Counted from the first letter of the stretch, positions 43,484 to 62,478 are shown. The stretch is DNA of 64,000 nucleotides from Syntrophales bacterium (GCA_963662405.2 CAXXKT010000001.1:512001-576000); one strand, 5' to 3'. Made by a program: numbers and translations. Notes: a model not told the origin generated them from the letters alone.

Positions 43484-45073
43484 TCACCCGGGCCTCCTCG
43501 CCTGGTGGACGGTAAAGGTCTCCCCCGCGATGATCATTGTGCCCGTACGAGCGCTTGTGCACGTATTCGTTGTAACGGTATAATCGACGGCCCCGTTTCC
43601 GCTTCCGCTGCTTCCCCGTGTAATCACGATCCAGTCGCTATTGCTTTCGCTGCTCGCGGCCGTCCATGCACAGCCGCTCGGAGCGAAGACCTCCACAGTG
43701 CCTGTCCCGTAGCCGTATTCGAAATTAGCGACCTTCGGCTCGATATCATAGGTGCAGCCAACCGGTCCGGCAAGGGCGGGGAGGGCGTCCAGCATCATAT
43801 CATCGAAGGAGGCGTTGACCTGAAGCGCGGCCAGAGCCCGGTCCGATACGTAGCCGATATAGGTGGCCCCGGTAATATCTCCCGCAAAGAGATCCACCGG
43901 TGCCCCGGAGCGCTTCGCATACGCGCCCAGTGCAACCACTTCCGTCGCGATCACGTCACCCGTGTCATTGTACGCCGTCAGGGTCACCGTCGCCGCAGCA
44001 TCCTCCGTGTTCGCAAAGGCAATCTCCGTCGTACCGTCCCGCTCCAGCTTGGAGAAAACACCCGCCGTCCCGGTGATGCCGACGCAGCTGCAGCCGGCCA
44101 GACGGTTCGTACCCTGCGCCAGAAGTTCGAGACCCGTGATCTCGGCCGTCGACTCTATCTTCAGCCAGGCCGTCGTCTCATCCACGAGTTGTGATACCAG
44201 CCCGATATAGTGCGCACCCCCGGCAATCTCCTCTTCCGCCTGGGGAAGGGCCACACCCGCCGCCGTATACGGAGAAATGGTGAGGTCACATTTCGTCTCC
44301 GACGGATTGTAGGCCACAATACCCGTCCCCCAGTCGCCCGCGTTCCGGGTATGCGGATAGTACATGGTCGTGGCGGTCCTGTCCTTCAGCAGGATACCGC
44401 TCATCTGGTACCCCACACCGTTGGTGAAGATCTCCAGTCCGATCACCCCGTCCGCATCACGGATCACGGCCGAATTGATCCCCGGCTGGTACTGACCGCC
44501 AAAGAGGGACCTGACCAGCACCGCCGTGTGCTCATGGGCCGCCAGATCCACATCACGGGTCTGCCCGTTGTCGAACTCGATCGTCACGGTCTTGGCCGAC
44601 GCGGTCGTATTGAGAAGGCTGATCCCGGTTCCCCACCCCTTGGCTTCATCGGACGCAATATGGGTGACGTAGATGTCTCCGGCGTTGATCTCGGATACGG
44701 CGGGAATCGCAACGCGATAGTACCCCTCCCGGTAGAACTTCGTGTACCCCACAATGGTATCCGAATTCGACTCGAAGACGATGTAGCCGATATTTGCCGA
44801 ATCGGTAAAATCGTCACACACGGAAATCTCCCACCGGCCGTGGGGAGGGAGGGTGACATCGTCGATCTCGGAGACCAGCACCCCCGCGTCGCTGTACGCG
44901 CGGAAGACACCGTCCACGGTACCGATTTCGCTCCGATTGATCGCGCAGATCTCCGTCCCCCACACGGTCGTGCACGCGACATGGGGATAGTAGAGGGAAT
45001 GGGCATGGGCGGGAACGCTACAAAGAAACACTCCGGCTAATGCCAACACAGTTAAGACGATTTTGGTTTTCAT
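43484..45073 (-). CDS. Secreted protein with four tandem surface modules and a C-terminal BACON-like domain
   Basis: Signal peptide MKTKIVL...AHA with AAGGAG RBS; C-terminal CAWTA.S...WI.I..GSSGSGNG.V.YTV..N....RTGT..IAG.TFTV.Q. Confidence 0.8.
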   Translation of the reverse strand: MKTKIVLTVLALAGVFLCSVPAHAHSLYYPHVACTTVWGTEICAINRSEIGTVDGVFRAYSDAGVLVSEIDDVTLPPHGRWEISVCDDFTDSANIGYIVFESNSDTIVGYTKFYREGYYRVAIPAVSEINAGDIYVTHIASDEAKGWGTGISLLNTTASAKTVTIEFDNGQTRDVDLAAHEHTAVLVRSLFGGQYQPGINSAVIRDADGVIGLEIFTNGVGYQMSGILLKDRTATTMYYPHTRNAGDWGTGIVAYNPSETKCDLTISPYTAAGVALPQAEEEIAGGAHYIGLVSQLVDETTAWLKIESTAEITGLELLAQGTNRLAGCSCVGITGTAGVFSKLERDGTTEIAFANTEDAAATVTLTAYNDTGDVIATEVVALGAYAKRSGAPVDLFAGDITGATYIGYVSDRALAALQVNASFDDMMLDALPALAGPVGCTYDIEPKVANFEYGYGTGTVEVFAPSGCAWTAASSESNSDWIVITRGSSGSGNGAVDYTVTTNTCTSARTGTMIIAGETFTVHQARRPG

Positions 45074-46553
45074 GATAAACGCTCCTTGGTGAATCAAAGG
45101 TGATATAGAGAGATAGTCATAGGTTAACGTGGCATTTATAACATGCGTTATCTGATATTCTCAATGATATACACGGAAAAAACGCCGCTTTCTGGCCCCC
45201 TGCGGACTCGCGCATCAGGATTCCTTGCCATATCTGTACGGGACCACAGACGGACCGTGCTCTGACCCACCGGCAGGCTTCTCCTCGCCGTGGTGACGGA
45301 TCACAATGGCATTCGATGGATCACAGCCCCGGCAGCGCATCCAGCATCATGTTATCCGACGCGGCATTGACCTGAAGCGCGGCCAGGGCCCGGTCCGATA
45401 CGTAGCCGATATAGGTGGCCCCGGTAATATCTCCCGCAAAGATATCGACCGGTGCCCCGGAGCGCTTCGCATACGCACCCAGATCGATCTCTTCCGTGGC
45501 GATTACGTCACCGGCATCGTTGTACGCCGTCAGGGTCACCGTCGCCGCAGCGCCCTCTGTGTTCGCAAAGGCAATCTCCGTCGTACCGTCCCGCTCCAGC
45601 TTGGAGAAAACACCCGCCGTCCCGGTGATGCCGACGCAGCTGCAGCCGGCCAGACGGTTCGTACCCTGCGCCAGAAGTTCGAGACCCGTGATCTCGGCCG
45701 TCGACTCTATCTTCAGCCAGGCCGTCTCCGGAGAGACGAGGGCCGATACCAAACCAATATAGTGCGCCCCACCGGTAATCTCCACGTCATCATCTGGCGG
45801 GGGAAGGGCCACACCCGCCGCCGTATACGGAGAAATGGTGAGGTCACATGTCGTCTCCGACGGATTGTAGGCCACAATACCCGTCCCCCAGTCGCCCCCG
45901 TTCCGGGTATGCGGATAGTACATGGTCGTGGCGGTCCTGTCCTTCAGCAGGATACCGCTCATCTGGTACCCCACACCGTTGGTGAAGATCTCCAGTCCGA
46001 TCACCCCGTCCGCATCACGGATCACGGCCGAGTTGATCCCCGGCTGGTACTGACCGCCAAAGAGGGACCTGACCAGGACCGCCTTGTGCTCATGGGCCGC
46101 CAGATCCACATCACGGGTCTGCCCGTTGTCGAACTCGATCGTCACGGTCTTGGCCGACGCGGTCGTATTGAGAAGACTGATCCCGGTCCCCCACCCTCTG
46201 GCTTCATCGGACGCAATATGGGTGACGTAGATGTCTCCGGCGTTGATCTCGGATACGGCGGGAATCGCAGCTCGATAGTACCCCTCCCGGTAGAACTTCG
46301 TGTACCCCACCACGTCCTCGCTATCGGACTCGAAGACGATGTAGCCGATCTCCTCCGAATCGCTAAAATCGTCACACACGGCGATCTCCCTCCGGCCGTG
46401 GGGGGCAAGGGCGACATCGTCGATCTCGGAGACCAGCACCCCCGCGTCGCTGTACCCACGGAAGACACCATTGACTGTCTCGGTTGCGCTGGTGTTGATC
46501 GCGCAGATCTCCGTCCCCCAGACCCCTGTACATGCAATGTGGGGATAGTAGAG
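43788..46553. repeat. About 1.2-kb near-identical direct duplication (about 43788-44995 and 45340-46553) encoding the four-module block
   Basis: Long identical stretches, e.g. GGTATGCGGATAGTACATGGTCGTGGCGG... near 44348 and 45906; protein blocks are nearly identical. Confidence 0.9.
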
Positions 46554-49292
46554 CGTTGCTTCCGCGCCCTCCCCCGCCATCCCCCCGCTCACCACCAGGG
46601 CGAAGGGCTGCGGCCCCTGGGGCACGCTGTACCCGCTCACCCGGATGGTGTATGCCCCCGTTGCCGGGGTCGCCAGGGTCAGACCGACGACGTTGTTCGT
46701 CCGGTCGAAGGACGAATCATACTGGACATCGGCCCGTATCGCCGCGGTATATGAGTCGACCTCCCATACGGAGTCGTTGTGCGAGTAGCTCCTCCCCGTG
46801 GGGTTGCCATTCTGATTGAGATAGATGCCCTGGGTTACGTCATCCTCTTCTACTGCGACATAGAAATCACCGCTCGCCACGGTCACCCCCGTGATGGCCG
46901 TGGTGTTCCACCCCGACGGGACGGAGGCCATGGTCGTCCGGAAGAGTTCCGTCCCGGGGAGCCCCCCCGTCCCGTCGTCGTCATAGACAACGATGTCGAC
47001 CGCCGAAGGACTGGAAGAGGGATTATAGAAACGGAACACGGCCGCCGTCACCTGGGCGGGGTACGACTCGGGGGTAAAACGCACCGCCCAGCTCGACTCA
47101 GATCCATAATACCCGAAGCTGCCGCTTTCGTAGGCGATGGTGTCGTCCAGCGTAACCCCATCCGGGTAATGGACCGTCGCCGCCGGGTCCGTCACCCGGA
47201 GGTCCAGGTCATTGACCAGTCCCCCGTCGGCCGCGGGGGAGCCGGGGTAATCCGTCCAGACCAGGTTCACCTTGAACGGATATCCGGCATCCGAGACGGT
47301 GACCGGATATTCGGTATACTCCCCGGTCTCCAGCCCCCCCTGTTCATCATAGTACAGGATATGAAACGGGGGGACCGGAAAGACCCCCCCCCGCGAGATT
47401 CAGCCTCCCCCACCCCTCGACGTTGTTCGGGACGGGGGAGTCGGGGATCTCCTGGGCCGAACCGGTCCCGTACTGACCGGGGGAGATGTCCTCGGCGCTG
47501 TTCAGGAGGGCGGCCTTGATCAGGGCCGCCGAGGGCGGGGAAAACCCCTTCTCCTCCATCAGGTACTCCCGCATCAGGGCGGCCGCCCCCGCCGCCAGGG
47601 GGGTGGCCATGCTGGTCCCCCCGTTGTACAGGTAATAGCTGTTATACGCCCCCCACCCCGGCCTCCCGAAGTTGTCGGGAAAGGTTGCAACCGACGAGCG
47701 GGTGGAGAGGATCCACGTCCCCGGGGCCACGATATCGGGCTTGTACCTGCCGTCGAGACAGGGGCCGCGCGCGCTGAAGGCGACCATGCCACCGGGATCA
47801 TCGGCGAGACGGTCGGACGCGATGGGCTCGGCGGGATAGTCGTCAGGCCAGCTCGTCCCCCAGGTGGAGGAAAAGGAGGACCGGTCCCCCCTCCGACGCC
47901 CCCACGGTGAGACAGTTCTTCGCCGTCGCGGGGGAGCCGATACTGGAAAGATCGACCACGCCGTCTCCGTCCGCATCGGCCCCGTCGTTCCCCGCCGAAA
48001 AGAGGATCAGGAAATCCTTGTGGTCCCACATATACTCGTCGACGGTCTGCGAATCCGAATCATACCGGCCGTATGCCACGCTCCCCCAGCTGTTGGTGTG
48101 CAGGTCGGCCCCCGCCCCCTGCGCCTCGGCGAAGAGGGGGGGTGAGAACCCATGGAATGCCCTCCAATTTCTTCGAGGTGTTGTTCTCGACGGCCTGAAA
48201 GACGAGGCGGGCCTTGGGGGCCATCCCGGCGAAACAGGTGGCGGGGAAGCTGTCCACGGAGGGATCGCTCCCCGATTCACGGCCGTTTCCCAGGACGGAA
48301 CCGGCGACATGGGTCCCGTGTCCGGAATTGACGTCATCGGCACCGTCCCCGTACCCGACACAGTCGATAATCGTGGTCACCCGCGTCCCCCCCGAGCCGT
48401 CTTCAAAGTCGTCGTGAAGGGAGCCGGGATCGGCCGAGCCCCGATCGAGGCCCGTGTCGCAGACACCCACCGTCTGCCCCTCGCCGTAGAGGCCGTGGGT
48501 GTCACGGGGGGTCCTGACCCCCATGAGGTCCGTCGATCTGTCGTTGTGGAGCCTCCGCTCGGGCCACGGCTCGACCCACCGGACCCCGGTGATGCCGGGG
48601 AGATCTCCCACCCGGTCTCTCGGAACCGTCACCTTCAGGGAGGTCCGCCATTGTGTGGACATCTCTTCCGTAACGGTGCCACCCAGCGCGGTAATCTCCG
48701 AGCTGATCCGGTCAAGGTCCTCACCGGGGAAGACCGAGGCACGGAGGACCACGGAGGCATCTCCGTCCCCCCGTGAAGACACCGTGCGCGCCCTATCCAG
48801 ACAACGGCGATCGATCCGGTACGAGGGCTGGAAGATCCCCACCCAGCGGACGTGCGGGAGGGCGCGGACAGCCTCTTCCTTTCCCGGATCCAGACGCACG
48901 ATAAAGGCGTACCGGGGAATGTAATCGAAGATATCACCCGCTTCACTGAGCCCTTCCTTCCAGGCGGCCTGCACGGGACCGTCGAACTGGACAATGTAGT
49001 ACCCGGTCTCTCCCTCCCCGTACGACTCGATCTTCCTGACGGTCTCCTCCTGCGGCGGGCTCTCACCGAGCGGGTCGAAGGGGGTACGCCCCAGTCGCAG
49101 CTCAAAAGGTTTATGATTCTTTACCTGATTTCGGACCGATTCCTGGGGAGTCTTCGCGGCGGCTATCGTCTCATCTATCGCCATGATCCGTTCGATCTCC
49201 CCCGCACGGGAGGGAACGACAGGGCAGCAAAGGGCAAAAAAGAGGGCCGGGAAAAGGCACCGGCCCATCACTCTGATTGCCTTTCGTTTCAT
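45321..49292 (-). pseudogene. Secreted S8 subtilisin-like protease with C-terminal beta domains and four surface modules; interrupted by three +1 homopolymer frameshifts (real or sequencing error)
   Basis: Catalytic triad VCDTG / GHGTHVAG / GTSMATP and FSAGN are spread over ORFs 48060-49370, 47843-48361, 47347-47976 and 45321-47270. Removing one base from each of the runs at 48136-48142, 47886-47891 and 47384-47392 gives a single 1322-aa ORF. Confidence 0.85.
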
Positions 49293-49379
49293 GAAATTCG
49301 TTGCCTTCCGTATCGTCTTATACCGGTCTTCAGTGTCTAGCAGGTGGAGAAACGCCCATGGGAAACGCACTCCACGCCG

Positions 49380-49940
49380 TCAATCAACAGGGTTTGTACG
49401 CTCCCCGTCCTCGCGCCATTCTCCCGGATCACCGGCAAGCGGTTGGGACAGTGCGACTGGCCCCGTGTAATAAGGCCAATCCCAGCTGGCGGGCCACCCG
49501 AAGAAGGTCTGAAAGCCGAATCCGCCCGTCGAGTTGGCGAAAAACTGAGTGACCGTGAATCGGCCCAACGTCGAATAGATGTAAAAACGGACAGGAGGTG
49601 TATATTCCGGCGCAAGCGCGGAGACCTCCTTTCCCGATGCCGTCACGTATGGAGGAAGATTGAACAGGTCATCAAGCATCCCCGTCCACCCGCCGTGATG
49701 ATCAGCCAGATCCAGGGTCACGCTTTTGACAAGTCCATCTATATCGTACAGGTCTATAACAAATTCTTCCGCCGTGGAGAAGGTCCCTACAATATGGAAT
49801 CCCGTGTTCCAGCCACCGGTATTGGTATTATAGGGGATAAAAGAGCGATACTCCCACGCCCCCGCTTCTTGCGGGGTCAAGGCACCTCCCATGATCAGGC
49901 CGATCACGATGAGAGAGGCGATAATGATCCGTGTTTTCAT
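49380..49940 (-). CDS. Small secreted protein with a single surface module
   Basis: AAGGAGG RBS, signal peptide MKTRIIIASL...AGA, then FIPYNTNTGGWNTGFHIV. Confidence 0.75.
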   Translation of the reverse strand: MKTRIIIASLIVIGLIMGGALTPQEAGAWEYRSFIPYNTNTGGWNTGFHIVGTFSTAEEFVIDLYDIDGLVKSVTLDLADHHGGWTGMLDDLFNLPPYVTASGKEVSALAPEYTPPVRFYIYSTLGRFTVTQFFANSTGGFGFQTFFGWPASWDWPYYTGPVALSQPLAGDPGEWREDGERTNPVD

Positions 49941-50129
49941 GACACCCTCCTTTGTTGCTGCCGCCCGATCCGCTCCCCGTGATTTCGGGATCGTATCAAA
50001 GCGGAGATTTCCGTTCGTTGACCACTTCTCCGTTCCCATAGACGTGGCATTGATTATAAACCAGCTCTCGCCGCAGTGTCAACCCATTCGGCCCCGCCGG
50101 GGACGGCGGCTCCCCTCCGTGACTGACTG

Positions 50130-50810: not shown

Positions 50811-52484
50811 TCACCGAAGGCGAAACACCTTTACGAAATTATCCTGATACAGCAATGTGCCACCCGCGGGCGAGAATCGTTCCAGCATCTCGTCACCACC
50901 GAACAACGTATCAACCAGGGGCTTCTTCATTAAATACGCTGCAGCCTCAAGCTGAGACCACGCGTACGGGTCTGATCGGGCTGCCTCCAGCCACTGTAAC
51001 AGCTCTCGCTTGATATTATAATGATGGATCCAGTACACCGGCCGAGTTGCCGGATCCGCCCCATCGGGACGAAACACCGTTGTGAATCTGAAGTTGTCGT
51101 TTTCTTCAAATATCCGCTGGGCAAAGCCGGGAGATATCCCGGCTGTTGTGATGGCATGACCATGGACGGAACTGTATCGGCCGTAGAGAGGGAAGGTGTA
51201 AATTCTTGGGGATTCGACAATATCGCCCTTTGCGCCCAGTTGTTTGACGAGTTCTGCATAGACGGTCCGTACCGGGACGCGACCGGGGGGTAGTGTTGTC
51301 CGATTCAGCATCATCACCATCGGGTGAACCGGATACGTGTCCGCCCGTGACATACAATAGTTCCCCGTGTCCACATGGTAATAGCCGTATCCCCCCAGAA
51401 GGACAAACACAACAAGCCACCCGGCCGTGCCGCAGGGCTTCGCCAACCGGGCGACACCGGCGCTCCAGAACACGATCAACAGGGGGAACAGATGGATCCA
51501 GTAGCGCAGCCAGACCCACGGGATATGGTCCAACCGCGGGTTCGCCACGTGAATCGTGAGGATCTGGACGGCCACGGCCATCGCCACGATCATCACCTGT
51601 CGCGGCCAGCGAGGGAAACAGGCGATGAGTCCGCTCAACGCGATCAACAACCATGCCCATACCGGCACAAAGACCGGCAGCGCATGAACCAGGAGCAAGC
51701 CGTTCCTGGCCGTCTGCATATCCGCTTTGCCCAGGGCCAACTTATGGGTCATGCCGTCAAGAAATGACGGGAGGGCAGGTCCCGAAGTTATCGCGACAAA
51801 GCCAGCGCCGATTACGGTGGCGAGTATATAGTTCCGACCCCACCGTTTATTTCCGTCAGTGGAGCCGGCGCACAGGACGAGAGGGGAAAGCCACAAGACG
51901 GCGACACTGGGAAAAACAACCGGCTGAAAATAAATTGCCAGCGCCAGTATCCCGGATGCGACGGTTAACGGTATCAGCCGTCGGCCGTTGTCTCTGTCCA
52001 TCAGGATAAAACCGGACCACGTAATGAGCAACATGATAACGGCATAGGGCCTCGCCTCCCGTGCGATGTACACAACATAGGGAGACACGGCGAAAAACCC
52101 GGTGACCAGCGAAGCAACCGCGGAACCGGCGTATTTCCGCCCATACCAGAAGACCACACAGAGGAGGAGTGTTCCCGCCAGAACGGCTGGCAATCGCAGT
52201 GTCAATTCGGTAAGACCCGTGGTTTCAAGCAATAATTTATTATACAGGGTATAGGGAATACAGGCGTCACTTGCCGTAAAATGAGTGGCGTTCCATAAGA
52301 AGGATTTTTCAGAGGCGAACCGAAGGGTGTGGAGTTCATCGGCAAAGATCTGGACCGACCCGATACACCGGAATCTCAGCCATATCCCAATCGCAAAGGC
52401 AACCCCTGTGCAGATAGACACTACTCCGGCAATCGCCAAACGGGACAGTCCATGATTACAATGCTTTTGATATAATGCGCGCAT
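50811..52484 (-). CDS. GT-C fold (PMT/GT39-like) membrane glycosyltransferase
   Basis: First TM followed by a DE motif (IFADE), E..LRLP.VLAG, SPY.VY.AREARPYA; multiple TMs and an extracytoplasmic C-terminal domain. Confidence 0.75.
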   Translation of the reverse strand: MRALYQKHCNHGLSRLAIAGVVSICTGVAFAIGIWLRFRCIGSVQIFADELHTLRFASEKSFLWNATHFTASDACIPYTLYNKLLLETTGLTELTLRLPAVLAGTLLLCVVFWYGRKYAGSAVASLVTGFFAVSPYVVYIAREARPYAVIMLLITWSGFILMDRDNGRRLIPLTVASGILALAIYFQPVVFPSVAVLWLSPLVLCAGSTDGNKRWGRNYILATVIGAGFVAITSGPALPSFLDGMTHKLALGKADMQTARNGLLLVHALPVFVPVWAWLLIALSGLIACFPRWPRQVMIVAMAVAVQILTIHVANPRLDHIPWVWLRYWIHLFPLLIVFWSAGVARLAKPCGTAGWLVVFVLLGGYGYYHVDTGNYCMSRADTYPVHPMVMMLNRTTLPPGRVPVRTVYAELVKQLGAKGDIVESPRIYTFPLYGRYSSVHGHAITTAGISPGFAQRIFEENDNFRFTTVFRPDGADPATRPVYWIHHYNIKRELLQWLEAARSDPYAWSQLEAAAYLMKKPLVDTLFGGDEMLERFSPAGGTLLYQDNFVKVFRLR

Positions 52485-52507: not shown

Positions 52508-53557
52508 TTACCGGCACGTCTCACCACCCCAACGGCGCGGTACGATATTCCGGCTCGTCAACTCCTCAGCGAGGGCCCGGGTGAAGGGGGGGGCATCACG
52601 CCGGTCCAGATGCGACCCCTCGGGACACGTAATACCCTCAATCCCCTCGATATCCCTGAAATGGATGGTGCAGGCTCCCGTCAGATCGGCGATACGATCC
52701 CAGTACTCCTTCCGGGGGTAGAAGCGTTCATCAATCTCCCAGTGTTCGCCGCTCGAAGGCAAACGGACAAAGACAACTCTTCCCCCGCGACGGGTAATCG
52801 TCTCCACAAAAGGTCTGATCTCTGCGGCATTCCCGCGCCACTCCTCAGGAGGAAGCGGAGGCTCCTGGGAGTAGATCTCTCGGATCCGCTTGATCCGATA
52901 GGCATAATGTTTCTTGATGTTCGTCATCGTATAATCCGCGCGCCGTGATCGATCGTGCCGGGTTACCAGATAGCGAGGCTGCGGAAGTCTGCCCGTTTTA
53001 TCATATGATTCGATCAGCCGTTCCACCTTCAGATAGGGATCGATAACCACGAGGCGGTTCTGGATGGCGGAGGACACCCAGCGGTTCAGGCGCGTATTGG
53101 GGGTTGAAACCGTGTGGTAATAGGCCACATAATCTTCCTGATCCTCCCGGAACTGCCGCTGAAATCCCATAGCGGTGATGGAACAGAGAACAACACCGGA
53201 GAACTTCGTATTGTTCGCCAGATCACGCAGGGCGGCGATCGGATGCTTTCCGTTAACCGCGAGCTGAATGATCTCCCGGCAGGGAAAGACCTCACGGAGC
53301 ACATCCAGAGAAAGATCAAGCTGGATACGCGAGGCCCCGAGCAGTACGATGGCCTCCTTTCCTGCCTTCTCAACCCTCGAACGATGGACAGACCACAGCT
53401 CCGGATCGTCCACCACGGTCGGCTTATGTCCCTGCGCACGCCAGAAGATCTCCATACCTCCCAGTACCAAAGCAACCAGAAGGAATGCCGCGAGCCACAC
53501 CCGTGGCCATCGATCGGCGTAAGACTGATGATTAGAACTGGAAATAGATGAAGGCAC
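52508..53557 (-). CDS. SGNH-like (AlgJ/DltD-type) periplasmic acyltransferase partner
   Basis: N-terminal TM, LLGASR (GxS), C-terminal EGSHLD; overlaps the MBOAT gene. Confidence 0.7.
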   Translation of the reverse strand: MPSSISSSNHQSYADRWPRVWLAAFLLVALVLGGMEIFWRAQGHKPTVVDDPELWSVHRSRVEKAGKEAIVLLGASRIQLDLSLDVLREVFPCREIIQLAVNGKHPIAALRDLANNTKFSGVVLCSITAMGFQRQFREDQEDYVAYYHTVSTPNTRLNRWVSSAIQNRLVVIDPYLKVERLIESYDKTGRLPQPRYLVTRHDRSRRADYTMTNIKKHYAYRIKRIREIYSQEPPLPPEEWRGNAAEIRPFVETITRRGGRVVFVRLPSSGEHWEIDERFYPRKEYWDRIADLTGACTIHFRDIEGIEGITCPEGSHLDRRDAPPFTRALAEELTSRNIVPRRWGGETCR

Positions 53558-54956
53558 GGTCCTCTCCCGATAGTATGACGATACCGATCAACATGCCGGC
53601 CAGCGCCAGTGATCTCAGCCAGCACGGCATTGAATATGCGATTTCTTCAAGCGTGCGGTTTCGCCCGCACCACTGCAGTGCGAATAGAATGGATGCAACA
53701 CCGGCCGTCATGATGACATCCCGTGACCCCAGCATCAGTGTGGCCGGCTCACCTCCCAACCCGAACATGGCCCGTACCATCATGCAGGCCTCCGCGAGGG
53801 TATCGGCCCGGAAAAAGACCCACGCGACACAGACAAGGGCGGCGGTAAAAAGGGCCAGGACGACCTTGAGCGGCATCCTGCTCCAGACGCGGGAAGCGGG
53901 TATGATCCTCCTGAGCAGCCGCTCCCCAAGGAGATAGAGGCCATGCACCCCCCCCCACAGCACAAAGGTCCACGACGCGCCGTGCCACAGCCCTCCGATC
54001 AGCATCGTCAGCATCGTATTGACCTGCGTCCTCAGCCCGCCCCGGCGGTTGCCGCCGAGGGGTATGTACAGGTAATCGCGGAGCCACGTTGAGAGAGAAA
54101 TGTGCCACCGCCGCCAGAAGTCGGAAAAGCCGGTCGCCGCATAGGGGGCATTGAAGTTGTCGGGGAGGTGAAATCCGAGGCAGATCGCCACACCGACGGC
54201 ACAGGTTGAATATCCCGCGAAGTCACAGAATATCTGCCCGGCGAAGGCGACCGTCGCGCACCATGAACTCACCATGTCCGGCACCCCGCTCCCGTCATAG
54301 ACCGCCTCCGCCACCGGGGCGAGGAGACCGTCGGCCAGTGCCACCTTTTCAAAGAGGCCCAGGGTCACGAGGACCAGTCCCCAGGCCATGTCACGCCCCG
54401 TTACCGTCGGCTCCTTCAGGCACTGGGGGAGGAAATGGAAGGCGCGGACGATGGGACCGGCCACAAGCTGCGGGAAAAAGGCGACATAGAGGGCGTAGTC
54501 CAGGAAGGAATGCCACGGGCGGCCCGTCCCCCGGTAGATGTCGATGGTGTACGAGAGGGTCTGGAAGGTGTAAAAGGATATGCCGAGGGGAATAATCAGG
54601 TCCGGCCGCGGCGGTTGATACGCGATATGGAGCCAGTGCATCAGGATCGTGAAGTTTTCGATCAGGAATCCCGCATACTTGAAATAGCAGAGCAGCCCCA
54701 GGTTGACGGCGAGGCTGAGGAAGAGAAAAATCCTGCGGGTTCTTATGCTTTTTGATTCGTGGATGCGCCGGGCGGCGATCCAGTCCGCCACCGTGGATAT
54801 CCACAGGAGGATGACGAACGGGGGGTTCCACGCGGCATAAAAGAGGTAACTGGCAGCGAGGAGCCCCGCCTTCTTCACCCCCCACCGCAGGGGGAAACGC
54901 GTGAAGGCGATGACGACGGCAAAGAATACGATAAAGGTATACGAGTTGAACAGCAC
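53532..54956 (-). CDS. MBOAT family O-acyltransferase (AlgI/DltB-like)
   Basis: MLFNS, PLGISFYTFQ, FFPQLVAGPI, DFAGYS, FWRRWHISLSTWLRDYLYIPLGG, GLWHGA, FIYFQF. Confidence 0.95.
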   Translation of the reverse strand: MLFNSYTFIVFFAVVIAFTRFPLRWGVKKAGLLAASYLFYAAWNPPFVILLWISTVADWIAARRIHESKSIRTRRIFLFLSLAVNLGLLCYFKYAGFLIENFTILMHWLHIAYQPPRPDLIIPLGISFYTFQTLSYTIDIYRGTGRPWHSFLDYALYVAFFPQLVAGPIVRAFHFLPQCLKEPTVTGRDMAWGLVLVTLGLFEKVALADGLLAPVAEAVYDGSGVPDMVSSWCATVAFAGQIFCDFAGYSTCAVGVAICLGFHLPDNFNAPYAATGFSDFWRRWHISLSTWLRDYLYIPLGGNRRGGLRTQVNTMLTMLIGGLWHGASWTFVLWGGVHGLYLLGERLLRRIIPASRVWSRMPLKVVLALFTAALVCVAWVFFRADTLAEACMMVRAMFGLGGEPATLMLGSRDVIMTAGVASILFALQWCGRNRTLEEIAYSMPCWLRSLALAGMLIGIVILSGEDRAFIYFQF

Positions 54957-55099: not shown

Positions 55100-55645
55100 T
55101 TACCCTTTGTCCGGGGTAAAGGTGCCATCCATCTTGAGCGTGCCTTGTTCCTTTCTGCCGTCGGGGTACGTGAGCGTCCCCACCGCGAAGCGCTTGATCC
55201 ACCGATATTCGGCCGGTGCCTTTATGCCGGTCTGCGCGGGAGCTTGCCCCTTTGTAACGTGGATCTCCTTCTTCCACTCTCCGGTAAATATCCTCCCGTC
55301 CCAGAAGGCCATGGTTCCCTGTCCTTCCCAAGCACCCTTCTTGAACTCCCCATCATACTGCTTTAACGGTTGGCCCTCGGGATACGTCAGGATCCCCCGG
55401 CCATCGGGTTTACCCTTCTGCCAGGACCCGGTATACGTATCACCGCCCGCCCCAATCATCATCCCCTGGCCTTCCGGCACACCATCCTTGAACTGCCCCG
55501 TATATTTCTTGAAGTTTTTATGGCCGGGATAGGTCATCACCCCTTCCCCGTTGAGGCAATCCCCCTGTATGCATTCGGACAGGACCGCTCCAGGATACCC
55601 GATAAGCAGCGCCGCCAGAACGGCGCACATCCACACTCGTTTCAT
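55100..55645 (-). CDS. Secreted MORN-repeat protein
   Basis: Signal peptide, CIQGDCLNGEG, repeated Y.G.[FW]K.G...G.G.M motifs. Confidence 0.85.
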   Translation of the reverse strand: MKRVWMCAVLAALLIGYPGAVLSECIQGDCLNGEGVMTYPGHKNFKKYTGQFKDGVPEGQGMMIGAGGDTYTGSWQKGKPDGRGILTYPEGQPLKQYDGEFKKGAWEGQGTMAFWDGRIFTGEWKKEIHVTKGQAPAQTGIKAPAEYRWIKRFAVGTLTYPDGRKEQGTLKMDGTFTPDKG

Positions 55646-55723
55646 TTTCATTCCTCCCTGATTAAAGAACTCTCCGCACACCGGATTGGGCTCCGGGACA
55701 CCGGCGAGGCTGCTCGAACCGCT

Positions 55724-56140
55724 CTATTGCTTCATCCCGGGGATCCCCAGGGGCGCCAGCTTCAGGCGCCAGCCGTCATCTTGCAGCAGCCACGTTTCCT
55801 TGAAGGTAAAGGGGAATACCATCCCCATATGCGATGCCTTGCACGTAACGTTCGCCACGGCTTCTTTCCCCGATTCCAGCATGGTAATCTCTGTGATCGA
55901 AAACTCCGATATATCGAGATTTGCCCCCCGTAAGAAAGCCTGGAGGGATACCTTCTCGCGGTATTCGGCCACCGTCAGATTATAGACGATGTCCCAGTTC
56001 TTGCTGACCTTGGCGTTCCACGCCTGTGTCACTCTCTGCCTCAGGGCCTCCTCACTTCCCGGATCCCTCAGGAGGTGAGCACATCCTCCCAACATGACAG
56101 ACAGCGAAATCAGAATAACCATCACCCTGAATCGATTCAT
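55724..56140 (-). CDS. Putative lipoprotein (possible NTF2-like fold)
   Basis: Lipobox LGG-C; LRQRV..AWNA...W, ETW...DDGW; overlaps the upstream stop. Confidence 0.75.
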   Translation of the reverse strand: MNRFRVMVILISLSVMLGGCAHLLRDPGSEEALRQRVTQAWNAKVSKNWDIVYNLTVAEYREKVSLQAFLRGANLDISEFSITEITMLESGKEAVANVTCKASHMGMVFPFTFKETWLLQDDGWRLKLAPLGIPGMKQ

Positions 56141-57195
56141 TGTTTCTCACCTCCGGACGCGGATTGTTTCTTGAGCAATTCCATATATTCTGCCGGAGAC
56201 AATTTGTGAAGTTCCTTGATATTCCTCATCTGTTCCTTTTCCCTCTTCTCTTCAAGCTTATCTTTCATGTCCTTACCGGTTATGGCAACGATCTTTTCAT
56301 CATCAGGGATCGAACCATCCAGAGGGATCATCCGGCTCCGGCTGACGGCGGCCTTTCCGTCCGCGTCGAGATTGAGGCGGGTATATCCGACTTGCTCCCC
56401 CCTATAGCTTGACTTGATGAAGGGCTCGTTGCTCGCGGCTTGCGCCATCTTCTTTCCGCAGCCCCCGCGCCTGTCTTTGTCCCCGGAACAAATGCTGAGA
56501 TCGATGCCGTCTAAGTCTTTAACCAGCAGGCGCGTCTTCTCCAGGTCATACTGGGAGAGCAGAACGATGACATCGGTCTGCTCCCGCAGCCCCGGCAGCA
56601 CCGCCGTGATGGCCGTCTTGGGATCAACGATCTCGAGACCTGCAACCAGGCCTTTGTCGCTGATATGGTCGAACGCACCGAGGGGGAGGATGGAAAGCAC
56701 GCCGACCCTGACATCTCCCGCCTTGACGACTGCGTATCCGTTACCGAAGGGCTGCATCCCGTCCCGGCGGACGAGATTCGTCGTAACGAAGCTGATACCG
56801 ACCTCCGACGCGGTCTTCGTCAAAAACTCGGCCCCGAGGGAGAAATCAACCCCTCCGAGACCATGTGCGTCATACCCCATGGTGTCCATCGCTTCGACGC
56901 CGATCTTCGCCACCAGTTCGCGATCCCATGCGCCGTCCCGATCCCGGGCGGACTCGGGGGGCATAAAACCGCCGCTATCCAGCAGGATCACTGGCGCCTC
57001 TTCGCTTCGAACCGAATCAATCACCGTTTTCGCTCGGGCCAGACCGCCCGAGGTACGGCCGCCTCACCCACGCCTCGGGGTCAGCTGCCCGACCAGATCG
57101 CCGGTGAACAGCACCGTAACTCCCTCATGCGCCAAGGCTCCCTCCGGCAGGGCCAGGCACAAAGCACACAGGACAAACAGGATCCATCTTTTCAC
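56137..57195 (-). CDS. Exported UshA-like (5'-nucleotidase N-domain fold) selenoprotein, about 352 aa; the ORF track captures only the part after the TGA
   Basis: Signal peptide (M)KRWILFVLCALCLALPEGALA, then VTVLFTGDLVGQLTPRRG(U)GGRTSGGLARAKTVI...LLDSGG. In-frame TGA at 57066-57064 followed by a SECIS-like hairpin. Alternative start ATG 57213. Confidence 0.85.
57033..57052 (-). promoter_or_regulatory. Bacterial SECIS-like element
   Basis: Minus strand CTCGGGC-GGTCTG-GCCCGAG: a perfect 7-bp stem starting 12 nt after the UGA. Confidence 0.8.
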
Positions 57196-57308
57196 GATAT
57201 CTTCTACCTCCATGGGTTCTTGTTTTGGGAAGATCTACGGGAAGATCCCCTCCCGTTTTACAACACATTAAACCAGATTTCCTCTATACCGCATCAGAAT
57301 TTCGCCCG

Positions 57309-57644
57309 TCAGTATTTACAGGGTGCGGCCATCGCAAGTCGTTCAAGATCCCCTTTGACGGTCTCGTCATCCGCCAGGTTGTTGCGAAAACATGCCTGGA
57401 GACATGCCTCCAGGTGGTGTCGGGGCTCTACCAGTCGGTAATGTCTCCACGTACCATCACGCCGAACTTCGACCATCCCCGCCGCGCGCATAATCCCAAG
57501 GTGGCGGGAGATTTTGAATTCCGGCTCGTGGAGCGCCTCTCCCAGCTGGCAGACACATTTCTCCCCCTGGATGGAAAGCAGGACCGCCAGTCTGAACCGG
57601 GTCGGATCGGCAAGGGCCTTGAAAATGGCTATTTCATCGTGCAT
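57309..57644 (-). CDS. arsR: ArsR/SmtB family transcriptional repressor
   Basis: FKALADPTR, EKCVCQL, ISRHL..MR.AG.V..RRDG.W..Y. Confidence 0.93.
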   Translation of the reverse strand: MHDEIAIFKALADPTRFRLAVLLSIQGEKCVCQLGEALHEPEFKISRHLGIMRAAGMVEVRRDGTWRHYRLVEPRHHLEACLQACFRNNLADDETVKGDLERLAMAAPCKY

Positions 57645-57668
57645 GTCAGGGTTCCCCTCCTATCTACG

Positions 57669-57716
57669 AATATGCACATTAACGCAGATTAAACATGCCC
57701 GACACAACCCTGTCAA
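57669..57716 (-). promoter_or_regulatory. arsR promoter with overlapping candidate operator
   Basis: Minus strand TTGACA-N17-TTTAAT; imperfect inverted repeat AATATGC-N8-GCAGATT (57669-57690) overlaps the -10/+1 region. Confidence 0.6.
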
Positions 57717-57885
57717 GAACAATATTGATCGGGGAAGAACATTACCCCCGAGTCGGAGAGCATTCGGAGCGGTACCGTTGGTATCCCCGATAGGCCTTCT
57801 CATCCGCCGTCTCAGAAAAATCTTGCCGATGGACAATCAGGCACCTCGATCCTGCGCCGTGGCCGGGAACCGTCGGCGGGCATGG

Positions 57886-60303
57886 TCACCGTATGACATC
57901 CCCCATCAATTTGTGGCTATCTACCGACGTCTGGAGATAGACGCCGCTGATAAAACCGTCATCAAGAGATTCGATTTTCGCGTATCCGAAGCGTTCGTCC
58001 ACGCCGAAAAGGCTTCTGATCGTCCCGCACACCTTTCGGTTCGGAGCCATATCCTCCCAGTCCCGCGTAAGGAGAAGATCTCCATCCGGGCTGAAGACTG
58101 AGCACCGGACGGTCGTCTCCGTGACTCCGGCATTAGTGAAACAGATTCCCGTCCCCCAAGACGTCTGATCGGGAATATGCGGGACATATCCGATTGAGGC
58201 GGACGCCCCCCTGATCGGCACCCCGGCCAGCTGCCATCCGCTGCTTGACGCGTACAACAGCCAGCCGCACAGGGGCTGATCGGCATGGGACACGATCCGG
58301 ATCGAAGCGATCTCCTGGGGGGAAACAAATGGGAAAAACGTGGTCGGTGTTCCGACCACATGCTGCCGTGCCTTGATGGTTCTCGTCGATTCATCCAGGA
58401 GATTCCCATCCGCGTCATATCCGTAAAAGGTGACAAGCGATGAGAACCGCCCGGCATTCGCGACGACGATACCCGTCTGCCAGTTCCGGTTCGAAGCGAC
58501 GTGCGGGACCACCAGCTCGGAGGTCCGCTCCGGATCCAGGGGGATAAGGCTCTTCAGGGAAAGTGAGACAGAAACATCTTCATACAGTTTCACATACCCG
58601 ATCAGCGAAGCGGCCCCGCCCTCAACCGTGGCGCTCATGGTCCGCGCCTCCTCGGATCTGAGGATCCCGACGGCGCCGGGCCGGTCCTCCGTTTTCTGAC
58701 CAGGATCGAGGACGACCGTATCCGTGCCGAGCGGCTCCCCCTGATCGTCATAGGCTTGGCGGGTAACGGTCACCGCCTGGTCGCCGACATTGATCATGCC
58801 GAGGTATGTCGTCCAGAATCCATACGCCAGTTGGGGGTAAAAGAGTTCCGCGGCGGCATCCCCACCCGGCAGGAGGTTGCACCCCATGAGGTCCCAGCTC
58901 CCGTAGGTCACCTCCTGCAGCCCCCAGAGCGGCTCATCCGCATCCACGCGGAGATATCCCTTGTCCGGGAGCGTCAGTCCGAAGTCATCCTCAACGGTCC
59001 CGGACAGCTGGCCGTAGAGATCCGACACGGAAAAGCTCTCCCCCAGCGGCAGTCCTTCCCGGTCCATCTGCGAGACGATGATCCTCCCCGACTCCGTTTC
59101 AGGGCTGAGGAGGGCAATGCCGTTGACCCATGACCCCGAAGGATCGAGTGGGAACAGCCCCTGCCAGCCGAGGATGTGCATTACATACAACTCGTAGGTT
59201 ACATCGGATCCGGTCGTCGGTACCAGTTGCAGGTAACAGGGCCCTTCCTCGCCGGCCTCGATAACGGTAGTGGCGCCGTCACTTTCGAAATGCAGCTCAT
59301 CCCCCATGGGGTATACCGTCAGGTCCATCCCCCCGGAGTCGGCGAAACCGGTGATCTCCACACGATCTCCCGCTTTCAGATCGATCGAGAACCAGTCGTC
59401 GGTGACCCCCAGGAGGGACGCGTAGTGGCCGCTCGATATCTCGGCGGCCGTTTCCTGTGACGTGTTGCCGGCAAAGGCATCATCCTCCGCCGCCGCGATC
59501 AATCTCACCTCCTCAACAGCAATCCCCGGGTTCAGGCAGCCGGGGCCCAGGACCTCCCAGGCCCCCTGCGGAGGCGCGATCCCCTCCCCCCAGCCGCTGT
59601 CCGCGATCTCGTCTCCATCCATCCGAAACCAGTACTCGTACGTCTTCTGGAGCACACGGGTCCCCACATAATCGGGACCGACGCCGTCGTTTGCGTAGTA
59701 TATCGTGGTGGTAAAGGTGATAACAGTCCCCACGGTCGTACTCTCGACATCGAACTGGTACACGGGGTAATTCCAGTGCTCCGGCGATATTCCCAGGTCC
59801 ATGATAACCGGCATCCCGCGATCCCCGATATAATCGTGCAGGACCCCGTGGAACCCGGCGGGGCTGTCGACGCCGAACCCGCCGCTGCTTGCCTCGACAT
59901 AATCGGCCTCGGTATAGGCCACGGTCAGGAGCCCCTTTTTGTCCCCCACATGAAATATAACCCCTCCGTAGAGGCCCGGACAAGTCGGTTCCGGTTCCAT
60001 GATGGACGCGGCGGCCCAGTTCCAGCAGTGCCCCCACCAACCTTCAGCGTCGTCGCTGTAATAGTACGACTCCCCGTAAGCGGTCGCCGGCCCGTCATAC
60101 CTCCCGCTGGTCACATAATCGTATTTTTGCAGGGGGGCCGGGGTCCCACGGTAGCCGTAGACGAGTTCCCCCCGCGAGGTCGGCCACCACCACCCGGACC
60201 ACGGTATGGTGTCCGCGGTATAGGTCTCACACAGACCGCCTGCCGCCATGGCGCACCACAGCATGACCATCAGACAAATCCCCGGTACTCTCCGTGCGCT
60301 CAT
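57886..60303 (-). CDS. Secreted transglutaminase-elicitor-like protein with a PPC-like domain and four surface modules
   Basis: PWSGWWWP, PLQKYD, WWGHCWNWAAASIMEPEP, F..GDKKGLL, PAGFH, WNYPVY; DWFSIDL.AGD domain; start ATG 60303 overlaps the upstream TGA. Confidence 0.75.
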   Translation of the reverse strand: MSARRVPGICLMVMLWCAMAAGGLCETYTADTIPWSGWWWPTSRGELVYGYRGTPAPLQKYDYVTSGRYDGPATAYGESYYYSDDAEGWWGHCWNWAAASIMEPEPTCPGLYGGVIFHVGDKKGLLTVAYTEADYVEASSGGFGVDSPAGFHGVLHDYIGDRGMPVIMDLGISPEHWNYPVYQFDVESTTVGTVITFTTTIYYANDGVGPDYVGTRVLQKTYEYWFRMDGDEIADSGWGEGIAPPQGAWEVLGPGCLNPGIAVEEVRLIAAAEDDAFAGNTSQETAAEISSGHYASLLGVTDDWFSIDLKAGDRVEITGFADSGGMDLTVYPMGDELHFESDGATTVIEAGEEGPCYLQLVPTTGSDVTYELYVMHILGWQGLFPLDPSGSWVNGIALLSPETESGRIIVSQMDREGLPLGESFSVSDLYGQLSGTVEDDFGLTLPDKGYLRVDADEPLWGLQEVTYGSWDLMGCNLLPGGDAAAELFYPQLAYGFWTTYLGMINVGDQAVTVTRQAYDDQGEPLGTDTVVLDPGQKTEDRPGAVGILRSEEARTMSATVEGGAASLIGYVKLYEDVSVSLSLKSLIPLDPERTSELVVPHVASNRNWQTGIVVANAGRFSSLVTFYGYDADGNLLDESTRTIKARQHVVGTPTTFFPFVSPQEIASIRIVSHADQPLCGWLLYASSSGWQLAGVPIRGASASIGYVPHIPDQTSWGTGICFTNAGVTETTVRCSVFSPDGDLLLTRDWEDMAPNRKVCGTIRSLFGVDERFGYAKIESLDDGFISGVYLQTSVDSHKLMGDVIR

Positions 60304-61007
60304 CACTCCCTCACCAGCCAATATCTCAGGTGACCGTTCTCCCCACAGATCGGCCACGGCGCCGTTTCATCCCAGTACTGGACGAACGAAACCTCTCCGT
60401 TCCGCGTACACCTGATCTCAATCAGATTATCCCCCGCCACAGACGGGCAGAGTTCAACCTCACCGGAATACCGTTTCGCATCCTGCCGCAGGGTAACAGT
60501 TTTGACAAACCCGCCGCCGATCGAGCGCTTCGCCTGATACTGCCCCGACGAGGGGAGCTCGACCGGGAAAAGGGGGGCGTCGAAGGGAATAGACGATCGT
60601 TCGGTGGATACGGGCACGGCGGTATCGAAGGCCAGTTTCGCCACCACCTGTTCATTGCTTCGCCGAACCTCGACCGCAGCGAGGGAGCGGTCGGCGCACC
60701 GAAACCACAGACGGGCCCCGGGTCCGTTATTCCCGGAAACCGAGGTGACATCCACGACGTACACCGGCTCATCCGCCCTCGTTTCCATGCCGTCCACCCG
60801 GTATACCCAGACAACCGGTGCCGACCAGCCGTCCGCGACGGCGGGCAGCCGTTGGACGACCTTGACGGACCAGCTGTCTCCCACCCGCCAATCGGGGTGA
60901 AATGATTCCGCTCCCGATACCGTATAACTGCCGAAGAGGAGGATGGAAGCCATGAGGCATGCTCCCACCAACCCGTTCATCGCCCTTTTCCGTGTGACCT
61001 TTCCCAT
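60303..61007 (-). CDS. Hypothetical secreted protein, Trp-rich and probably beta-rich
   Basis: Signal-like segment, P.W.VGD.W.V motif, translationally coupled to the TGase-like gene; start uncertain (61007 or 60980). Confidence 0.7.
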   Translation of the reverse strand: MGKVTRKRAMNGLVGACLMASILLFGSYTVSGAESFHPDWRVGDSWSVKVVQRLPAVADGWSAPVVWVYRVDGMETRADEPVYVVDVTSVSGNNGPGARLWFRCADRSLAAVEVRRSNEQVVAKLAFDTAVPVSTERSSIPFDAPLFPVELPSSGQYQAKRSIGGGFVKTVTLRQDAKRYSGEVELCPSVAGDNLIEIRCTRNGEVSFVQYWDETAPWPICGENGHLRYWLVRE

Positions 61008-61200
61008 TGCGTGTCTCTTCGTCGTATCGTATCTCTCGCCCGGGGACATGTGTATCCTTTCCGCCGTTTCGACAGCCGGGAGAAAATGTACGTGATGATT
61101 GCCCCTGAAACGGGTATCAGACGGTGCCGAAGGGCCGGGGTATGGCACCACTACAGCCTTTACCCGGTCGGCAACCGGCCTTTTCGTTATTCTCAGATCG

Positions 61201-61241
61201 AAAAAAAAGGGTGATACGGACACCGTCCGTCCGTATCACCC
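61201..61241 (-). terminator. Rho-independent terminator
   Basis: Minus strand GGGTGATACGGAC-N7-GTCCGTATCACCC (13-bp perfect stem) followed by T8, about 60 bp after the 61300-62478 gene. Confidence 0.9.
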
Positions 61242-61299
61242 GGGTTGTCATCCCTTCCCCGAAACCGCTCAGGGCTCCGGGGAAGAAAAGCCATTTACA

Positions 61300-62478
61300 T
61301 TAGTCTAAGTCTCTCTGGCAGGGGCTGTTGCAGTCGGCCGCGTAGGTGCCGCCCGCGTAGTTCCCGTTGGAGAGGAACATATACCCATTGATCATGAAGT
61401 TGGCAGTCGCCTTCAGATAGGCACGACCCGCCGCCGGGACACCGCTGAACTCGGCCAGGATCGCGTCGAGGCTGAAGGTCCAGACATACTCATCACTCGC
61501 GAAGTCATCCTTCGTGTAGGTGAACTCGGTACCGGTCGCATCGACAAGCGTGAAGACCACTTCCATGTCACCGTACGCCACGGCGGCCGGATTCATATTG
61601 ATCAGGGTGATACCCGTGACCCACGGACTGCTCTGGGTCAGGACGTAGGGGAAGAGCACACAGCACTCATCCGGCTCCGTCACTGTTTCCGGGCAGTAGA
61701 TGCCGAGGTCGACGGTGCACTCGCAGACCACCGCGCAATCATCGCAGATGGTGCCCGGATTTTCGGCGGACAGCAGCTCGATCTTCACCAGAACGCTGGC
61801 GCCACGTACCGCATCGTCCTCATCGTACTTCATGGCGGGCATATCGATCCACCACCAGCAGAAGGCATCGTCAATGTCGGCCTCCTGGAGCAGATAGCCA
61901 TCTCCGCATTCCGTCTCTTTGACGAGGGGCTTGTAGAGAGGATCGCAGTCGTTATCCTTCGGAGCCGGAAAAGTGTCATACGTACGGGCACGGTCCGACC
62001 AGTAATTGTAGTCGGTGCCGAAGGTCCGGATGTTCCCCGTCGCTGCCATTGTCGCGGCGGCGCAGGCGTCCGTGGAATTCTCATAGGTGGTGAAGAAGAT
62101 CTCATCAGCCGTGAAATAGAACCCGTCCGTGAGGGACGTCATGCGGATCCCGATCGTGTTGCCCGATACAAAGGCGCTCACGTCTTCGCAGCAGCAGATG
62201 TCGAAGAGCACCTTGCAGCCTTCGTTATCCGTCGAATAGCCGATGGCACCGCTCGCGACGGCGGTCGCATCCAGGGCCGAACTGGTGTCATCATAGTCGA
62301 AGAAATAGGCCTGGCAGACCCCTGCCGCGTTGACGGCGGTCGAACTCACCGGGCAATCAATGGTGCCGATATTGCACTTGCCGCAGTCTTCGCAGCATGC
62401 CTGATGCGCGGCGGCGGGCATTGCAAACGCGAAGACCATCGCCATCGCGGCAAATAATACTAAAGCTTTTTTCATCAT
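61300..62478 (-). CDS. Cys-rich acidic secreted protein with one C-terminal surface module; candidate S-layer or major envelope protein
   Basis: AGGAGG RBS, signal peptide MMKKALVL...AAA, more than 20 Cys, VLFPYVLTQSSPWVTGITLIN; has its own strong terminator. Confidence 0.7.
   Translation of the reverse strand: MMKKALVLFAAMAMVFAFAMPAAAHQACCEDCGKCNIGTIDCPVSSTAVNAAGVCQAYFFDYDDTSSALDATAVASGAIGYSTDNEGCKVLFDICCCEDVSAFVSGNTIGIRMTSLTDGFYFTADEIFFTTYENSTDACAAATMAATGNIRTFGTDYNYWSDRARTYDTFPAPKDNDCDPLYKPLVKETECGDGYLLQEADIDDAFCWWWIDMPAMKYDEDDAVRGASVLVKIELLSAENPGTICDDCAVVCECTVDLGIYCPETVTEPDECCVLFPYVLTQSSPWVTGITLINMNPAAVAYGDMEVVFTLVDATGTEFTYTKDDFASDEYVWTFSLDAILAEFSGVPAAGRAYLKATANFMINGYMFLSNGNYAGGTYAADCNSPCQRDLD

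Follow-up and report, generated by a model that had tools for sequence, protein, structure and literature searches.

Three predicted secreted proteins encoded in one stretch of DNA from a Syntrophales bacterium share a block of four tandem modules. The stretch, here called the window, covers 64,000 nucleotides (GCA_963662405.2, CAXXKT010000001.1:512001-576000), and positions refer to its full length. Two further proteins of the window carry a single module. Structure models show the module to be a domain of the ASRAH/ASRT fold, and sequence searches place the blocks in a very large, nearly unannotated, mostly Desulfobacterota branch of this described superfamily. There is about an even chance that the four-module block is a glycan-binding, likely pseudo-tetrameric anchor that holds secreted proteins, here called passengers, on the cell envelope.

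A preliminary description of the locus had claimed an undescribed module and a new lattice system. The claims of a new fold and a new lattice are corrected here. The fold and the secreted tetrads of modules are known from the 2009 work of De Souza, Iyer and Aravind (PMC2739507), which also anticipated a pseudo-tetramer, the likely reason for the number four.

The proteins in question are A, with a BACON-like domain; a subtilase; C, a small protein; D, which is transglutaminase-like; and F, which is rich in cysteine (Table 1). The genes for the secreted proteins lie on the minus strand at 43.4-64 kb, and their signal peptides were called by eye from the translations. The preliminary description counted 14 module copies in these five proteins, and all are present. 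The motif P-[HYQ]-x(5-8)-W-x-T-[GE]-I-x3-N is confirmed at its reported sites, with a spacing of about 105 amino acids (aa). F and C each have one copy and D has four. A and the C-terminal piece of the subtilase (45321-47270) each have three clear copies and a degenerate fourth. The 14 segments can be aligned over about 106 columns, and the modules conserve W-x-T-G-I-x3-N.

Independent evidence is provided by a profile of 280 modules from 70 proteins of other organisms, searched against all 28,572 stop-to-stop open reading frames (ORFs) of the genome. This outside profile finds four domains each in A, the subtilase piece, D and two proteins encoded outside the window (full-sequence E 6e-104 to 7e-42). 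The next matches are C (E 0.0017) and F (E 0.039), and no further ORF among the 28,572 is matched at E<=1. Of these two, one is on contig 3. The other, the third paralogue (L001:7188-9269), is 693 aa long and lies 56 kb beyond the window.

A profile of the F family alone reaches, after F itself, only D (E 0.023), over the motif stretch alone. For this reason a profile-profile comparison (hhalign) was needed for F. The F module matches the outside modules with a probability of 96.9% and an E of 2e-10 over 94 columns; the N-domain of F, taken as a control, gives 0.1%. C matches with a probability of 94.4% and an E of 8.8e-8, over the first 63 columns only. Judged by sequence, the module copies are demonstrably homologous to one another. 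C-like proteins adjoin S8-tetrad genes both in the window and in a related locus (L005), where a homologue 44% identical to C lies between two such genes.

The number of modules is nearly constant. A profile search of 1.84 billion representatives finds 8,688 proteins with the module at E<=0.001, 3,326 at E<=1e-10 and 444 at E<=1e-30. Copy number and position were taken from the best 150 of the 8,688, ranked by score, which favours multi-copy proteins: 146 have four module stretches, three have five and one has three. A second scan of the same 150 finds four in 149 and three in one. The block is 405-430 aa long in nearly all of them, typically about 412 aa. It stands at the extreme C terminus in 94, right after the signal peptide in 42 and internally in 11, and it makes up the whole protein in 3. 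A crude signal peptide is seen in 118 of the 145 proteins that start with methionine. In the 76 related loci, four modules occur in 85 of 95 module-bearing ORFs, the rest being mostly cut or frameshifted pieces. The claimed preference for four is thus strongly supported by sequence counts.

The four positions of the block are also distinct from each other. Module 1 of an outside protein scores about 140 bits against position 1 and about 30 bits against the other positions. Since the module positions are individually conserved, the A-type tetrad must be old. The D-type and contig-3-type tetrads also have four modules, but these cannot be assigned position by position. They are separate tetrad subfamilies, so that this genome has three divergent types, all fourfold. 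A circular permutation of the D block was considered and rejected: a first scan put D modules 2-4 at A-type positions 1-3, and the assignments of D, its relatives and the contig-3 protein became ambiguous once D was removed from the profiles.

The contig-3 protein (L002:8917-12570, genome G000) is secreted and 1217 aa long. Its N-terminal divergent tetrad resembles two duplicated pairs; an extended stretch of unknown type comes next, and then an IPT/TIG domain.

The blocks of A, the subtilase and the third paralogue (L001:8040-9269) have 91-95% DNA identity over about 1.2 kb. Their passengers are unrelated, namely a BACON-like C-terminus, a subtilase and an unknown N-domain of 280 aa. This points to a block that was recently duplicated or gene-converted as a cassette.

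The copies had been expected to share one fold, and they do so in the models. An AlphaFold2 model of the A block, made with 58 aligned sequences, has a mean predicted local distance difference test (pLDDT) score of 92.5 and a predicted template modelling (TM) score, pTM, of 0.90. It predicts that the four modules form one compact folded unit. DSSP assigns eight strands each to modules 1 and 2 and similar counts to modules 3 and 4. In a VIA-align search of 48,161 chains, module 3 of this block matches TM1070 (1nc7_A) at Z 14.2, with a root-mean-square deviation (rmsd) of 2.0 over 101 of 116 residues. Anabaena ASRT (2ii7_A) follows at Z 11.3, and the next best match has Z 7.5. The F model (pLDDT 77.8) gives the same two proteins. 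Its module (residues 271-387) matches 1nc7_A at Z 10.8, rmsd 2.6 and 103 of 116 residues, and 2ii7_A at Z 8.8, with the next best match at Z 6.2. Foldseek pairs a single module of the A block with 1nc7 at probability 1.00; matches are with single modules only, and the whole block has none (TMq <= 0.19).

The ASRAH domain is an eight-stranded sandwich in which a near-invariant Asn ends strand 2 (PMC2739507). In the 58 aligned blocks, an Asn closes strand 2 of every module (N23, the invariant N132, N233 and N332). The solo forms, TM1070 and ASRT, are homotetramers, and the TM1070 pocket is partly walled by the dimer interface (PMC2739507). Secreted ASRAH dyads and tetrads with signal peptides were described in 2009, and homo- or hetero-tetramers (pseudo-tetramers) and sugar binding were proposed for them (PMC2739507). 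By its fold, the module belongs to a known superfamily, whose families were themselves tied together in 2009 by transitive searches only (PMC2739507). The idea that a block mimics a tetramer is reasonable, because the closest solved relatives are homotetramers (PMC2739507). The further idea that the tetramer being mimicked is a lattice tetramer of F is not supported, as described below.

A sequence route to the superfamily may lead through DUF5719 (PF18986), the only Pfam family touched by the blocks. The scores are 16.1 bits for the A block, 25.2 for the subtilase piece and 14.3 for the D block, all under the cut-off of 26.2 bits; C and F have no score. In this genome the cut-off is passed only by the contig-3 protein (29.4 bits). 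It is passed by 6 of 64 representatives, and a precomputed PF18986 match is present in 22 of the 120 relatives listed. A DUF5719 cluster is also found among the ESM Atlas neighbours of the block (score 0.96). DUF5719 probably corresponds to the actinobacterial dyad lipoproteins that were assigned to ASRAH in 2009, and the route from the modules to ASRAH through DUF5719 holds only if this is so. Membership in the ASRAH superfamily is therefore argued from the fold, the strand-2 Asn and the architecture together with this weak link. Single modules have no significant Pfam or NCBIfam match. No NCBIfam model fits any of 11 proteins, irrelevant weak matches aside. Literature searches found no mention of DUF5719, and found ASRAH as a protein term only in PMC2739507 and TM1070 in three papers. 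The supplement of that paper mentions no Desulfo-, Syntropho- or deltaproteobacterial member, a negative that may not extend to its fuller tables.

The passengers are diverse. Among 64 representatives scanned, peptidases include S8, C1 (with a lectin-like domain), C11, C14 and M12B. TGase_elicitor, Transglut_core, serpin, GH16, CAP, LRR, PKD, RCC1 and Lcl_C also occur, as do Cthe_2159, BACON, beta-helix, rhodanese, cupredoxin, Lectin_like and others. No Pfam family is assigned in 25 of the 64. Public names of the relatives are "hypothetical protein" or the name of the passenger.

The hosts of related loci are mostly metagenome-assembled genomes (MAGs) of Syntrophales, Desulfobacterales and other Desulfobacterota. 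A few are labelled Bacteroidales, Acidobacteriota or Pseudomonadota. This host range is a lower bound, owing to a narrow search pattern, and several loci share one MAG. ESM Atlas neighbours are unnamed clusters of Chloroflexota, Thermodesulfobacteriota and Acidobacteriota. By record titles, the hosts include partner bacteria of alkane-oxidising archaea. Overall, the block is present, under hypothetical, passenger or DUF5719 names, in thousands of proteins that anaerobes such as sulfate reducers and syntrophs are predicted to secrete. Recognising the ASRT-fold tetrad gives a handle for their annotation.

The proposed function is that of an anchor. In this model, each module is an ASRAH-type eight-stranded beta-sandwich, and four in tandem make one fixed block of about 412 residues. 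The four modules may pack in the manner of the TM1070/ASRT homotetramer. Their pockets would bind a sugar, and the ligand would be a polymer of the cell's own envelope. The block would then tether the subtilase, transglutaminase-like and BACON-like passengers to the envelope. The single-module proteins F and C may likewise use their module to assemble into such tetramers. The anchor is proposed because a fixed terminal repeat unit is found on unrelated secreted passengers, the unit has the ASRT fold, and sugar binding was predicted for this fold in 2009.

Several observations weigh against an anchor of this kind. The sugar binding of ASRAH domains is itself a prediction, from contexts that point to sugars (PMC2739507). 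The ASRAH domain has a conserved Trp at the start of strand 1 (PMC2739507), while in the modules the conserved Trp (W15, W124, W225) opens strand 2 and strand 1 has Y/F-Y/F-P-H. The pocket residues H and C of TM1070 (H25, C29) are replaced. Neither single modules nor blocks have a Pfam ASRT match at E<=10. When the module profile is searched against PDB sequences, 1NC7 and 2II7 are not found at E<=10, and only chance matches appear (E 0.7-1.3). The module is patchy within the phylum, occurring in 8 of 200 other sampled genomes, and was not found in the same-genus genome or the four same-order genomes sampled. In these diderm hosts, no way for the proteins to cross the outer membrane was identified. 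The bias of the score ranking and the narrow spread of the glycan genes, given below, belong here too.

Alternately, the block may point outward. It would then act like a carbohydrate-binding module and direct enzymes or adhesins to plant, algal or partner-cell glycan, or to foreign peptidoglycan. The same fold evidence applies, and the next structural neighbours after TM1070 and ASRT are carbohydrate-binding modules and lectins (5aot, Z 7.5; 2j22, galectins and 7t7z, Z 5.0-5.8). Some passengers are glycan-active or glycan-binding (GH16, Cthe_2159, BACON, Lectin_like), but most are not carbohydrate-active (proteases, serpin, transglutaminases, rhodanese, cupredoxin, RCC1, LRR). A fixed terminal unit of four modules is unlike the usual single or variable arrays of carbohydrate-binding modules. 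Peptidoglycan binding was proposed for the Chloroflexi tetrads that are fused to an amidase (PMC2739507), and many hosts live in consortia or aggregates according to record titles (Eth-SRB, Ca. Tharpella). However, the near-identical block on three paralogues fits one self ligand better, and an external target appears unlikely.

A role without any glycan is also conceivable. The block could aid the export, folding, stability or oligomerisation of its passenger, either as the docking site of a dedicated partner in secretion or assembly or as a protease-resistant stalk like the macroglobulin (MG) domains. It occurs at either terminus, and its model is compact and rigid; the N-terminal position in 42 of 150 speaks against a C-terminal sorting signal. 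In Foldseek, the MG domains of C3, C5 and A2M are weakly similar to single modules (E 4e-8 to 1e-5), but with TM <= 0.14 and an rmsd above 20 A across the array. C3 and C5 reach Z 5.1-5.3 in VIA-align, far under TM1070, and in both searches the MG matches fall far short of those to ASRT/TM1070. The loss of the TM1070 pocket H and C would suit a scaffold. In contrast, every module keeps the H, W, T and N of its motif, which exceeds the needs of a stalk. A conserved secreted protein, E, lies between F and D and might be taken for a docking partner, but its homologues are found in one related genome only, so that E is not a general partner. On this balance, a scaffold without a glycan role is decidedly unlikely.

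The preliminary description had instead placed the block in an S-layer-like lattice. F would be the major subunit, joined to its neighbours through its module, and a block of four modules would imitate a tetramer of F, letting the protease, the transglutaminase-like protein and the adhesin slot into lattice positions. Some features of the F gene agree with high expression. A perfect AGGAGG stands 6 nt before the ATG, the upstream region of 254 bp (62479-62732) has a TTGACA box, and the gene has its own strong terminator, as do many abundant structural genes. F has one ASRAH-type module, and solo ASRAH proteins are tetramers (PMC2739507). Protein-glycosylation-type PMT_2 genes are near.

The distribution of F does not fit such a role. 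In a search of 5.8 billion clusters the F family has 26 members, with its cysteines conserved in the alignment, against 8,688 representative clusters with the module. Searches of five genomes that bear tetrads did not find it in four, including ones with 24 and 18 module matches at 96-97% completeness; in the fifth, only a part of the N-terminal region is matched. In 75 of the 76 related loci, the surrounding +/-8 kb contain no F homologue. The N-domain of F is weakly like the tandem Ig-like domains of Gram-positive pilins and adhesins. These are generic matches only (TM about 0.2, Z 5-6) that assign the domain to no family, and Z 5-6 is within the range of chance fold matches. A search of the S-layer and Desulfobacterota literature gave nothing relevant among the matches listed. 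A lattice with F as its major subunit is very improbable. Because the family has only 26 members and was not found in four of the five genomes, F cannot, as far as sequences tell, be the general partner of the tetrads. At most it belongs to a local F-E-D cassette.

Evidence for such a cassette comes from one Syntrophales MAG (L018/L006), where the gene order CAP-F-E-D, and with it the F-E-D order cited for a lattice, is kept. A CAP protein (L018:12056-13582; Pfam CAP and blastp match) holds the position of G. The E homologue (L018:15047-15808) is 37% identical and in the same position, and the D orthologue (L006:837-3347) is 41% identical over its full length. In both genomes the end of the E gene overlaps the start of the transglutaminase-like tetrad gene. 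F, E and D would form a conserved cassette, in which E may be a dedicated partner of D or F. E has no Pfam or NCBIfam match. A weak ESM Atlas lead to CT021 (0.92, 155 shared features) was not trusted. The longer ORF of E starts at 61223, within the terminator hairpin of F; E therefore more likely starts at 61010.

A broader version of the anchor can also be imagined. Desulfobacterota and other diderm anaerobes would have a general surface-display system, in which covalent ASRAH pseudo-tetramers dock dozens of enzymes and adhesins per genome on an envelope glycan, mixed with non-covalent tetramers of F and other solo-module proteins that have this shape and occupy the same sites. This system is doubtful. 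If it existed, the mixed layer of F tetramers and tetrads would be a Gram-negative counterpart of the SLH/secondary cell-wall polysaccharide (SCWP) and CWB2/polysaccharide II (PSII) systems, made from a fold that until now has been known solely as a sensor of sugars in the cytoplasm.

The glycan genes beside A were also noted in the preliminary description. The Wzm/Wzt pair is confirmed. Its generality is not, because homologues of Wzm, Wzt and the glycosyltransferases occur near tetrads only in L004, L005 and L006/L018, with one Wzt match in L056. This synteny is shared only by the three closest related places (4 of 76 loci), and the cluster was rejected as a general partner of the tetrads. 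The nearby glycan genes fit an anchor but prove little.

Three PMT_2-like (GT-C) genes, one weak and two clear, flank the secreted-protein genes together with an MBOAT gene; one is fused to TPR. They suggest that an envelope polymer, or the secreted proteins themselves, may be glycosylated or acylated. Positions 30001-32000, which lie in the glycan cluster between a GT2 gene and an Acyl_transf_3 gene, have a GC fraction of 0.41, compared with 0.50-0.64 in the rest of the region. This part looks like a horizontally acquired insert.

The domain names given earlier hold in part. The TGase_elicitor match of D (49.8 bits) is above its cut-off and Peptidase_S8 matches two pieces of the subtilase, while the BACON match of A (19.4 bits) and the GT-C match to PMT_2 (16.6 bits) are under their cut-offs. 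The subtilase gene does not read through in a single frame. To remain collinear with its intact S8-tetrad orthologue of 1319 aa (L005:3734-7690), it needs three +1 frame changes within 47350-48160 (at C7 near 48140, G6 near 47890 and G9 near 47390). These could be errors of long-read assembly, the decay of the gene, or a switch by strand slippage that acts on a surface protease. The middle of the window locus encodes a small MORN-repeat protein, and its Syntrophales relative has a tetrad protein of 1301 aa that bears MORN_2 (L006:9268-13170).

Table 1. Genes, domains and signals of the locus, numbered from the first nucleotide of the window except where a locus is named.
Feature	Position	Strand	Description
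Protein A	43484..45097	-	537-aa ORF; likely start MKTKIV at 45073; signal peptide, four ASRAH-type modules, C-terminal BACON-like domain
Protein A modules	44684-45004, 44375-44683, 44054-44374, 43718-44053	-	Module profile, four domains
Protein A BACON-like domain	about 43499-43657	-	19.4 bits; Pfam cut-off 25
Subtilase (S8) with C-terminal four-module block	45321..49370	-	Peptidase_S8 matches on two pieces
Subtilase four-module block	45324-46562	-	Four module domains
Subtilase frames	48060-49370, 47347-47976, 45321-47270 and a short stretch in another frame	-	Three frames
Protein C	49380..49940	-	186 aa from MKTRII; signal peptide and one divergent module
Genes between C and D		-	Methyltransferase, PMT_2-like membrane protein, one unknown, MBOAT, MORN-repeat, two unknowns
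Polytopic membrane protein	50811..52484	-	Weakly PMT_2-like (GT-C); 16.6 bits, cut-off 26.1
MBOAT acyltransferase	53532-54956		
Small secreted MORN-repeat protein	55100-55681	-	Mid-locus
Protein D	57886..60357	-	823 aa; TGase_elicitor-like N-terminal part; divergent four-module block
Protein D TGase_elicitor match	about 59902-60042	-	PF16683, 49.8 bits; cut-off 25
Protein D four-module block	57889-59169	-	Four module domains
Protein E	60303..61010	-	About 235 aa from MGKVTRK; secreted; between F and D
Intrinsic-terminator-like hairpin	61209..61241	-	14-bp stem with 8 G-C pairs, then T8; 59 nt past the F stop
Protein F	61300..62478	-	392 aa, 23 Cys; signal peptide; Cys-rich beta-sandwich N-domain, aa 27-264
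Protein F module	aa 271-387, about 61318-61668	-	One ASRAH-type module
Protein G	62733..63986	-	Secreted; two CAP domains (PF00188, 63.1 bits); upstream of F
Wzm and Wzt	40842-41651 and 39505-40887	-	ABC glycan exporter; ABC2_membrane, ABC_tran and Wzt_C matches
Glycosyltransferase cluster holding Wzm/Wzt	28573-43317		Downstream of A; several GT2/GT1/GT4 matches
PMT_2 genes just past window end	L003:505-2436 (with TPR), L003:3260-4966		31.4 and 48.2 bits
Two GT2 genes	Beyond window end		

The anchor suggests, in a form open to test, a way in which diderm anaerobes might keep proteases, cross-linkers, inhibitors and adhesins on their surface or within a consortium matrix. The block, as a likely natural covalent version of the ASRT/TM1070 tetramer, could also help to settle what this fold binds.

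The nearest known system is the ASRAH superfamily itself. The modules are like ASRAH (1NC7, 2II7) in the eight-stranded sandwich of about 105-115 aa, the strand-2 Asn and the secreted tetrads. They differ from it in that there is no direct sequence match, the pocket H and C are replaced, and the Trp lies at the start of strand 2. The tetrads of 2009 were "always fused to an amidase" and came mainly from Chloroflexi (PMC2739507), whereas those found here have dozens of kinds of passengers and are mostly from Desulfobacterota. Secreted single-module proteins like F and C are not described in that paper (PMC2739507). The DUF5719 profile, with 319 positions, spans only part of a block, and the family is described for Actinomycetota.

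Another comparison is with the SLH and CWB2 trimers. These are fixed tandem repeats that form a pseudo-symmetric terminal unit on paralogous secreted proteins and bind a secondary cell-wall glycan. None of the 15 window proteins scanned has an SLH or CWB2 Pfam match. The fold of the block is unrelated to theirs, there are four repeats rather than three, and the hosts are diderm rather than Gram-positive; the ligand and surface location of the block are inferred. The block and these trimers are alike in being a fixed terminal repeat unit that is joined to unrelated passengers, and the block described here is uniform within its genome.

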